From an uncultured Clostridia bacterium (GTDB lineage: Bacteria > Bacillota > Clostridia > TANB77 > CAG-508), in contig CANPVM010000003.1 of NCBI GenBank assembly GCA_947581805.1, forward strand, positions 137,775 to 201,774: a stretch of DNA of 64,000 nucleotides, read 5' to 3'. Positions 32,742-33,923 of the stretch are shown one piece after another. Position 1 is the first letter of the stretch, and every line of letters begins with the position of its first letter. The notes under the pieces were generated by a model, which saw only the letters and a list, made by a program, of their open reading frames with translations, was not told the origin of the DNA and ran no database searches. The position numbers and the translations under genes were made by a program.

Positions 32742-33923
32742 TTATTTACCAGTTTCAACTCCTATATTATCTTCGCTTATTTGCAAAATATGTAACCATA
32801 TAGCAGGATACCCTAAATATTTTATTTTAAAAATTACTTTTCCAACTAATTGTTCTTCTTTAACTTCATTTACATCTGGTGCACCATTATTATCTCCTTT
32901 GGTAATAAAATAATACTTACCGTTTCTTTGCTTTTTTTCAATGATTCTATGTATGATACTATAGCCTTTAATTTTATATTCTATAATATCTCCAACATTA
33001 ACATCATTTGGCTTACATTCTTTTATAATTGCAATATCACCTACACATAGTTCCTTTTCCATACTACCTGTTGCTATTGATACTGGTTTAATTGGAAATA
33101 TTCCTATTGCAAACCATATTGCTAAAATTACTAGTATAGCCAAAGGAATTATATTTTTTGGATTCGAATTTATTATGTTTTCCCTTGACCTGAAAATATT
33201 CAATTTGTTTTTAACAAATTGAATGTACAAAAATAAAATAACAGGTATTGTTATATCTATAATGGCTGTCATAATCCAAGGTGAATTAGGAAGAATTGGT
33301 GACACCCAAAAATATAAATTGGTTAGTATTTGATATAGCATAGCAGATACATAATTACTATATATCGCCATATATGAAAATACCATATTTTTTGCAATAT
33401 TTGGTAACACGGTTTGTATAATATATTCTACTAATCCAAACATTGTAAAATTTCTACCTATAAATCTAGTAAATTCAAAATCAATTATTATATAAACAAC
33501 TGATATTAAGATTGCTATTTTTGATTTATCTTTATCATATACATTGTTTATTAATTTATATCTTACATATTCTTTTGCTATTAATACAGTTCCTGTTATC
33601 CATATATTGTGTATTAAACCTTTTAGAGTGGCACTATATGGATTCTTTCCAAAGCTTACCACTAAACCAGATAACATATATATAAGAATAAATGCTAAAG
33701 AGGCTATCACTGTATATTGTATAATCGGTTTTTGAAGTTTTTTATTTTCAATATTTTTGCCTAAAATTAAGTATAAAAATATGGCAAGCATGAGCCATAC
33801 AACAGGATTAATTATGTATAAATAGATTATGTTTATTTCTTTTACTAACTTTAAATTTCCTAAAAGACCAAACAATAACATAAGAATTATTATAACGATT
33901 GTGGCCACTTTTGATTTTTGCAT
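32742..33923 (-). CDS. SipW-type (archaeal/ER-type, S26B) signal peptidase domain fused to a ~270-aa N-terminal polytopic membrane domain
   Basis: C-terminal 120 aa: ..ATGSMEKEL..GDII.Y......IHRII...ITKGDNN (Ser/His catalytic pattern of SipW/Sec11); N-terminal 7-8 predicted TM helices; flanked by TasA-like genes. Confidence 0.7.
   Translation of the reverse strand: MQKSKVATIVIIILMLLFGLLGNLKLVKEINIIYLYIINPVVWLMLAIFLYLILGKNIENKKLQKPIIQYTVIASLAFILIYMLSGLVVSFGKNPYSATLKGLIHNIWITGTVLIAKEYVRYKLINNVYDKDKSKIAILISVVYIIIDFEFTRFIGRNFTMFGLVEYIIQTVLPNIAKNMVFSYMAIYSNYVSAMLYQILTNLYFWVSPILPNSPWIMTAIIDITIPVILFLYIQFVKNKLNIFRSRENIINSNPKNIIPLAILVILAIWFAIGIFPIKPVSIATGSMEKELCVGDIAIIKECKPNDVNVGDIIEYKIKGYSIIHRIIEKKQRNGKYYFITKGDNNGAPDVNEVKEEQLVGKVIFKIKYLGYPAIWLHILQISEDNIGVETGK

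Follow-up and report, generated by a model that had tools for sequence, protein, structure and literature searches.

What does a large polytopic membrane domain do in the same chain as a signal peptidase? The question is raised by a gene in a 64,000-nucleotide stretch of DNA (hereafter the window) from an uncultured Clostridia bacterium (assembly GCA_947581805.1, contig CANPVM010000003.1, positions 137,775 to 201,774). The gene encodes a protein of 393 amino acids (aa), and it lies in what appears from its sequences to be an operon for extracellular fibres of the AbpX type. An earlier reading of the letters alone (the sequence-only reading) had described the protein as a SipW-type signal peptidase fused to a membrane domain that might export, assemble, or anchor the fibre protein. 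Our analysis indicated that this domain has the fold of the CPBP/Rce1 (CAAX-protease-like) membrane proteins in structural models, that it has lost the catalytic histidines of that superfamily, and that it may act as a scaffold for the attached peptidase. The coordinates of all features are collected in Table 1.

The fused signal peptidase

Residues 257–374 of the protein matched the TIGR02228 (sigpep_I_arch) model with 97 bits (cut-off 51.85), and a match to Pfam Peptidase_S26 was also obtained (26.5 bits; cut-off 22.9). The SipW equivalog NF046067 gave 56.1 bits, which was below its cut-off of 190, indicating that the enzyme was of the SipW class but was not SipW itself. The sequence-only reading had placed an S26B-type peptidase in the C-terminal third of the protein with the motifs GSMEKEL, IHRII, and GDNN. 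All of these were present, and a peptidase of the endoplasmic reticulum (ER)/archaeal type was indeed joined to a large polytopic domain; only the identification as SipW proper did not hold. Ser287, His325, and Asp344 were invariant across 47 close homologues. Moreover, Met288, Arg326, Gly343, and Asp344 were invariant in 115 diverse homologues (20–57% identity), at least 90% of which kept Ser287 and His325. Judged from these alignments, the domain carries the catalytic Ser/His pair and the GDN aspartate of S26B, with histidine in place of the bacterial lysine. A C-terminal domain devoid of Ser/His, which would have spoken against the earlier reading, was thus excluded.

The fusion was found far beyond the window. 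A search of a large protein collection with the whole protein returned 1057 matches at E ≤ 0.001, and the best 120 of them were 351–399 aa long, with an identity of 61–100% and a query coverage of 89–100%, mostly 97–100%. Furthermore, a profile of the N-terminal domain (252 residues) was compared with 1.84 billion cluster representatives and matched 1178 clusters at E ≤ 0.001, with 656 at E ≤ 1e-10. The peptidase domain was present in 124 of the 150 best relatives of the N-terminal domain, and the remainder were mostly short fragments. For a distant branch, represented by the domain of locus L052 (JGI 3300001854), nearly all of the 120 relatives listed were about 380–405 aa long, about three quarters of those listed had a precomputed PF10502 match, and every named one was annotated as signal peptidase (I). 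The annotated relatives in this branch belonged to Candidatus Bathyarchaeia, Archaeoglobales, Dehalococcoidia, and Chloroflexota. The fused architecture is a large family across Clostridia, Chloroflexota, Bathyarchaeia, and Archaeoglobales. It had been called unusual, which was right only relative to the textbook SipW; the family is large and was already mentioned in a preprint of 2026 (bioRxiv 10.64898/2026.01.04.697558).

Two other genes in the window, for a minor fibre subunit and for a penicillin-binding protein (PBP), were apparently disrupted in frame, and the fusion could likewise be an artefact in which a frame error merged two adjacent genes, or its peptidase domain could be dead. Such an explanation has a negligible probability. 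The 120 listed full-length proteins, drawn from independent assemblies, share the same continuous reading frame, as do 48 related genome loci, every one of them from uncultured Clostridia of gut and rumen. The fusion is therefore not a frame error, and the N-terminal domain is not a separate open reading frame (ORF), an outcome that the sequence-only reading had considered. In addition, the catalytic Ser, His, and Asp were conserved.

Hydropathy and two AlphaFold models agreed on eight helices within residues 5–241, followed by a basic linker and an anchor helix at residues 259–273. The earlier estimate was of seven or eight transmembrane (TM) helices in the first 270 aa or so, and the result was eight in residues 1–245 plus the anchor helix. 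Lysine and arginine numbered 13 in the predicted inside loops and 6 in the outside loops, with five of these residues in the loop before the anchor helix. This bias predicts a cytoplasmic N-terminus and a peptidase domain on the outer side. The catalytic domain is predicted to stand on the outer face of the membrane, directly after its anchor, so the topology prediction that had been proposed as a check made the peptidase extracytoplasmic, with nine helices in all. The AbpX-locus signal peptidase of bacteria and archaea has been described as "structurally distinct, possessing ten transmembrane helices" (bioRxiv 10.64898/2026.01.04.697558). In comparison, the window protein had eight plus one clear TM helices and a short C-terminal helix (residues 372–381), which is possibly a remnant of the tenth.

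Fold and motifs of the membrane domain

The second AlphaFold2 model of the two-domain chain was built from the 115 diverse sequences and had a mean predicted local distance difference test score (pLDDT) of 94.2 and a predicted template modelling score (pTM) of 0.88. The pTM value suggested a fixed relative arrangement of the two domains. The best structural matches of the membrane domain in this model were SpdC (13.1), Rce1 (11.4), TMEM147 (7.5), and APH-1B (5.8), which reproduced the result of the first model. TMEM147 is presumably one of the proteins described as APH-1-like. In ECOD, APH-1 is placed as a remote homologue of Rce1 (PMC6588880), and no fewer than three of these four matches accordingly fall in one superfamily. 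As modelled, the eight helices of the N-terminal domain adopt the CPBP/Rce1 fold, and the domain probably shares ancestry with that superfamily.

Sequence searches were silent on this relationship. Residues 1–252 gave only noise against Pfam and NCBIfam at E ≤ 10 (DUF4044 and VirB3), in agreement with the earlier remark that this part had no obvious family resemblance. A profile of the domain gave only ribosomal-protein noise among the PDB sequences, and a Foldseek search of the PDB returned nothing significant for the membrane domain. A regular-expression search for a CPBP gene that could serve as comparator found none in the window or in the 48 loci. Weak matches to Pfam Amidase_6 were scattered over 17 of the 115 polytopic peptidases (best E = 4.8e-4) and may be composition noise. 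An exosortase or archaeosortase identity was rejected because the N-terminal domain of the window protein contains no cysteine.

Within the domain, Glu118 was present in all 115 sequences, and Arg121, Asn106, and Gly86 were each present in 114. Position 117 was Q, R, or K, giving (Q/R/K)-E-x-x-R and not the canonical EExxxR of CPBP proteases; QExxR/EExxR spacing has been described for APH-1 and PrsW (PMC6588880). The domain was also compared by hhalign with a CPBP alignment, for which an artificial consensus query had retrieved 56 real PF02517 proteins. The pairing obtained, which was non-significant, set K117-E118...R121 on EExxxR, Y144...D148 on FxxxH, and Q198...N202 on HxxxN. Neither the histidine of motif 2 (FxxxH) nor that of motif 3 (HxxxN/D) was a conserved column among the 115 sequences. 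In the same non-significant mapping, the position paired with the histidine of motif 2 was most commonly D, E, S, N, Q, or T, and the motif-3 columns were variable. By its sequence, the domain is not a canonical CPBP member, and the catalytic histidines are absent. Other conserved polar residues within the helices were Tyr184, Tyr197, Asn179, and Thr/Ser183. The most conserved features on the outside were the TM3–TM4 loop FGK(N/S)PY (residues 91–96) and the TM7–TM8 loop SPILPNxxW (residues 208–216), which formed a small β-pair in the AlphaFold models (91–93 with 210–212).

Fibre processing and the role of the membrane domain

The gene is part of what, from sequence comparison, is an AbpX-type fibre operon of the TasA superfamily, in which the polytopic peptidase is accompanied by a DUF5305 protein. 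The 189-aa subunit encoded upstream begins with the signal peptide MKKTKRN...LALSVGYA and continues with AFSAVLNIEGTATG; cleavage after GYA would yield the mature chain. A profile of 32 orthologues matched AbpX, an archaeal matrix protein solved in the PDB (9sj2_C), with E = 5.4e-6. The match spanned 124 profile positions, AYPG...N.GT.PA among them, and began with the third residue of the mature chain; the single sequence gave E = 0.024. AbpX is a clade within the TasA superfamily (bioRxiv 10.64898/2026.01.04.697558). Pfam Peptidase_M73 touched only one of the 32 subunits, and the substrates belonged to the AbpX clade and not to camelysin or TasA proper, as had been supposed.

An AbpX-like subunit gene lay upstream of the fused peptidase in 44 of the 48 loci, and DUF5305 lay directly downstream in 47. 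A location in a TasA-superfamily fibre operon, and a tie between the extra domain and the fibre system, were therefore borne out; in one lineage, the domain is even fused to a subunit. The gene had also been said to sit between two TasA-like substrates. This was correct for the upstream subunit, but the immediate downstream gene was DUF5305, and a second subunit gene, which is frameshifted, followed beyond it. An accessory role to signal peptidases has been suggested for the DUF5305 family, which in some cases is fused to such enzymes (bioRxiv 10.64898/2026.01.04.697558 and further literature). The January 2026 preprint on AbpX of Pyrodictium abyssi describes a DUF5305 accessory, minor subunits, and sortase/LPXTG neighbours, the last often in bacteria (bioRxiv 10.64898/2026.01.04.697558). 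Compared by description, its AbpX loci share with the window an AbpX-like subunit, a many-TM peptidase of the TIGR02228 class, DUF5305, and minor subunits. Similarly, in SipW–TasA–TapA of Bacillus subtilis and in the haloarchaeal tafi system, a dedicated ER-type peptidase stands beside donor-strand subunits, and DUF5305 (TafG in tafi) is a recurrent companion. However, SipW spans the membrane once or twice and lacks a CPBP-like domain, the additional domain of TafD in the tafi system is another one, with four TM regions predicted, and no TapA-like gene was found in the module by a Pfam scan of the window and the comparison of the 48 loci.

Closer parallels to the membrane domain were found in staphylococci. 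SpbR is a CAAX-protease-like protein with the degenerate motifs HELYMR/FIYLD/QIVAI, which forms a 1:1 complex with SpsB through the TM helix of SpsB and regulates its cleavage (PMC12260438). Like the window enzyme, the SpbR–SpsB pair of Staphylococcus aureus couples a degenerate CAAX-protease-like polytopic part to a type I signal peptidase, in that case through a TM helix and an outside loop. The corresponding motifs of the window protein, KEY-VR/YIIID/QILTN, were similar, as far as a non-significant alignment and a comparison with the published SpbR motifs allow. The differences were that SpbR and SpsB are separate proteins, that SpsB is a housekeeping enzyme of the bacterial P-type (Ser/Lys) and the window enzyme is of the ER/archaeal type (Ser/His) and dedicated to one system, and that SpbR is an inhibitor and is recognised by hidden Markov models (HMMs) as a CAAX protease. 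SpdC (LyrA) is an eight-TM scaffold with the CPBP fold that holds the single-pass protein SagB by TM–TM contact and the TM3–TM4 loop, and its putative catalytic residues are dispensable (PDB 6u0o). Its partner is a glucosaminidase to which it is not fused, and its sequence identity to the window domain was 12%. Compared with Rce1 and other CPBP proteins (PF02517, PDB 4cad), the window domain had ExxR instead of EExxxR in motif 1, lacked the histidines of motifs 2 and 3, and had no HMM match.

The reading that we favour, with a probability of about 0.5, is that the N-terminal domain is a non-catalytic scaffold which docks and orients the components so that cleavage is specific for AbpX-type precursors. 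It draws on the identity and catalytic residues of the peptidase, the SpdC and SpbR precedents, the state of the motifs, the high pTM of the two-domain model (an indirect support), the spread of the fusion in bacteria and archaea, the conservation of the operon, and the relationship to AbpX. The protein would be the dedicated processing enzyme of an AbpX-type extracellular fibre system. The peptidase, held outside by its own anchor helix, would use Ser287, His325, and Asp344 to remove the lysine-rich signal peptide from each fibre subunit. The cut, which probably follows the conserved G-Y-A, would free the N-terminal strand (AFSxxLxIxGT...) for donor-strand assembly. The eight-helix bundle, with both catalytic histidines lost, would be a built-in partner subunit that clamps the anchor helix of the peptidase, and perhaps also the signal-peptide helix of the subunit, in the membrane. 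The two conserved outside loops may set the height and orientation of the active site, and cleavage would become specific to, and possibly gated for, AbpX-class precursors. DUF5305 would be a second accessory subunit. In such an enzyme, a partnership of the SpdC–SagB or SpbR–SpsB type would have been made permanent by gene fusion through a short cytoplasmic linker.

Several results weigh against this scaffold role or the CPBP assignment on which it draws. PF02517 was matched by none of the 115 diverse members when each was scanned against Pfam at E ≤ 1, and the hhalign comparison with the CPBP alignment, though colinear, had a probability of 1.3%. The earlier statement that CAAX motifs were not convincingly present thus stood at the level of sequence, but not for the fold, which is CAAX-protease-like in the models. 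The contact between anchor helix and bundle was assumed rather than seen. SpbR inhibits its partner, and a permanently fused inhibitor is implausible, so the analogy covers the binding and not the sign of the effect. Furthermore, the near-absolute invariance of Glu118, Arg121, and Asn106 at 20% identity exceeds the obvious need of a passive scaffold and might reflect a remaining chemical activity or a bound ligand. The same residues might serve a divergent glutamate-dependent intramembrane protease that makes a second cut. This cut could degrade the signal peptide once it is released (as a built-in signal-peptide peptidase), or it could shorten the precursor at the cytoplasmic or membrane side, whether earlier or later than the signal peptidase acts. 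Glu118 lies near the cytoplasmic end of TM4, analogous to the EExxxR site of Rce1 (an equivalence taken from the non-significant hhalign alignment), the polar residues within the helices are conserved, and catalytic CPBP members exist in bacteria, such as MroQ (PMC12260438). A second enzyme is nevertheless rather improbable, given that both histidines which define active CPBP proteases are missing and their aligned columns are unconserved, that mutations of the equivalent H/E/R residues of SpbR changed expression only (PMC12260438), and that the putative catalytic residues of SpdC could be dispensed with.

A variant at locus L052 bears on both the scaffold and a further alternative. There, one gene (L052:6336-7760; P0267/P0332) encodes the polytopic domain, a signal-like helix, an AbpX-like subunit, and a dockerin; it is preceded by three AbpX-like subunit genes and an HTH_45 regulator, and no peptidase was found within 13.5 kb. 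A domain fused to a subunit and lacking the peptidase points to a role with the substrate and not with the enzyme alone, which again tells against the favoured scaffold. It would suit a domain that is mainly a membrane platform, anchor, or assembly chaperone of the TapA or AbpB kind, holding the signal-anchor or donor strand of the subunit at the membrane and starting or tethering polymerisation, with the peptidase attached for proximity only. The modelled β-pair between the outside loops could pair with a donor strand, and the module lacks a TapA-like gene that would otherwise fill this place. We consider such a platform unlikely. L052 was a rare exception to the usual presence of the peptidase among the best representatives and to the uniform length of its own relatives; its form was a cluster of six members that could be derived or decaying, and no evidence of strand pairing was obtained. 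A bolder extension of the scaffold reading seems doubtful to us. In this extension, the fused domain would be the signal-peptide receptor of a universal, hitherto unrecognised two-part (with DUF5305, three-part) prokaryotic signal peptidase complex for donor-strand fibres, a counterpart of the multi-subunit eukaryotic complex. The lysine-rich signal peptide would be bound, or even cut, at the invariant Glu/Arg/Asn site, so that processing is coupled to assembly. The protein would then also be a "Rosetta-stone" fusion from which a partnership of CAAX-protease-like pseudoenzymes with signal peptidases far beyond Staphylococcus could be read.

Bacteria carry many CAAX-protease-like membrane proteins without a known role. 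To our knowledge, the few that have been solved are scaffolds or regulators of single-pass envelope enzymes, one of them regulating a signal peptidase. A family in bacteria and archaea whose members carry such a domain permanently fused to a signal peptidase would provide separate support, from genomes, for an ancient and general partnership. The fusion would also offer a simple one-gene system in which to study the control of a membrane-anchored hydrolase by a CPBP-fold bundle. Moreover, for the AbpX/TasA-like matrix fibres of uncultured Clostridia that are abundant in gut and rumen, it would mark the processing step, which is distinct from housekeeping secretion and could be targeted. The ten-TM architecture is already known but barely described. 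The AbpX preprint counts the helices only and makes no mention of CAAX, CPBP, or Rce1 (bioRxiv 10.64898/2026.01.04.697558), so the architecture was on record, but not what kind of domain the extra part is. The fold assignment and the parallel with SpbR and SpdC appear to be new, and together they make the function testable. The eight-helix domain merits a Pfam or NCBIfam family of its own, as these proteins are now annotated only as "signal peptidase I".

Neighbouring genes

Table 1. Features of the fused peptidase gene and its neighbours, in window positions
Feature	Position	Strand	Basis
Whole gene, 393-aa fusion of a polytopic domain of predicted CPBP/Rce1 fold and an ER/archaeal-type signal peptidase I	32742..33923	-	ATG start; homologues 351–399 aa; AlphaFold2 model
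Eight-TM domain, residues 1–245, predicted CPBP/Rce1 (CAAX-protease-like) fold, without catalytic histidines	33189..33923	-	
Asn106	33606-33608	-	
Glu118	33570-33572	-	
Arg121	33561-33563	-	
Predicted basic cytoplasmic linker and peptidase anchor helix (259–273, ninth TM helix), residues 246–276	33096..33188	-	hydropathy peak 258–276; model; Lys/Arg
Signal peptidase catalytic domain, residues 277–374	32802..33095	-	
Ser287 (GSMEKEL), predicted catalytic	33063-33065	-	
His325 (IHRII), predicted catalytic	32949-32951	-	
Asp344 (GDNN), predicted catalytic	32892-32894	-	
Short C-terminal hydrophobic helix (372–381) and tail, residues 375–393	32745..32801	-	helix pLDDT about 70
Major fibre subunit, 189 aa, AbpX-like (TasA superfamily)	34022..34591	-	profile of 32 orthologues against 9sj2_C
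DUF5305 membrane protein, 350 aa, proposed signal-peptidase accessory subunit	31654..32706	-	PF17231, 61.8 bits (cut-off 29)
Second (minor or tip) subunit gene, frameshifted	31045..31639	-	three-frame translation; DNA
Soluble protein, 338 aa, divergent from the subunit gene	34815..35831	+	adjoins the subunit gene in 43 of 48 loci
Class B sortase and 404-aa surface protein	28795-31017	+	
FtsI-like PBP, split into two ORFs	35882-38072	-	

The second subunit gene starts with an ATG at 31639 that encodes MYQKYKRKRKMQWNVSIIFMILFIIIISM, and it changes frame near 31550, at a position that is not a long homopolymer. The body continues as GFGYSLLSRTLYIHGTVTG... in the frame of a 135-aa ORF (31045-31452), and the N-terminal signature is the same as in the 189-aa subunit (GYSLLSRTLYIHGTVTG). 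The same 135-aa ORF was called in the metagenome contig L001 (8472-8879). Related loci had intact orthologues of 200–216 aa after DUF5305, and a second gene with the signature was found there in about 30 of the 48 loci. The window copy is either a pseudogene or the product of a sequence error, which would be shared between assemblies.

The 338-aa soluble protein was strongly conserved in its C-terminal half (…FLPYK…RFRE.YSLIRDRE…NP.IIAACKTQ…) and had no match in Pfam or the PDB; it is possibly a regulator of the fibre operon. Scans for promoters and terminators gave nothing informative. A 655-aa protein from a Logan contig (P0264) had an AbpX-type signal and CBM49 and CBM2 domains in front of the polytopic domain and the peptidase, and it may represent a subunit gene and the peptidase gene fused by read-through.

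A class B sortase (TIGR03064, 158.9 bits) adjoined a 404-aa surface protein with TPKTG, a hydrophobic tail, and RRKVK, and the two are likely a cognate pair. They were not conserved in the 48 related loci and hence lie outside the conserved module. The surface protein was rejected as an AbpX-like anchor, as it showed no similarity. On the other side, the FtsI-like PBP was split into ORFs of 505 and 218 aa. It was one gene of roughly 580–660 aa in most related genomes, and the same split was found in locus L019 and in the contigs L001 and L002. The G+C content of positions 28000-36000 was 0.25–0.27, compared with about 0.29–0.33 in the flanking cluster of division and cell-wall genes, and a sign change of the GC skew at 28–32 kb coincided with the change of gene orientation.

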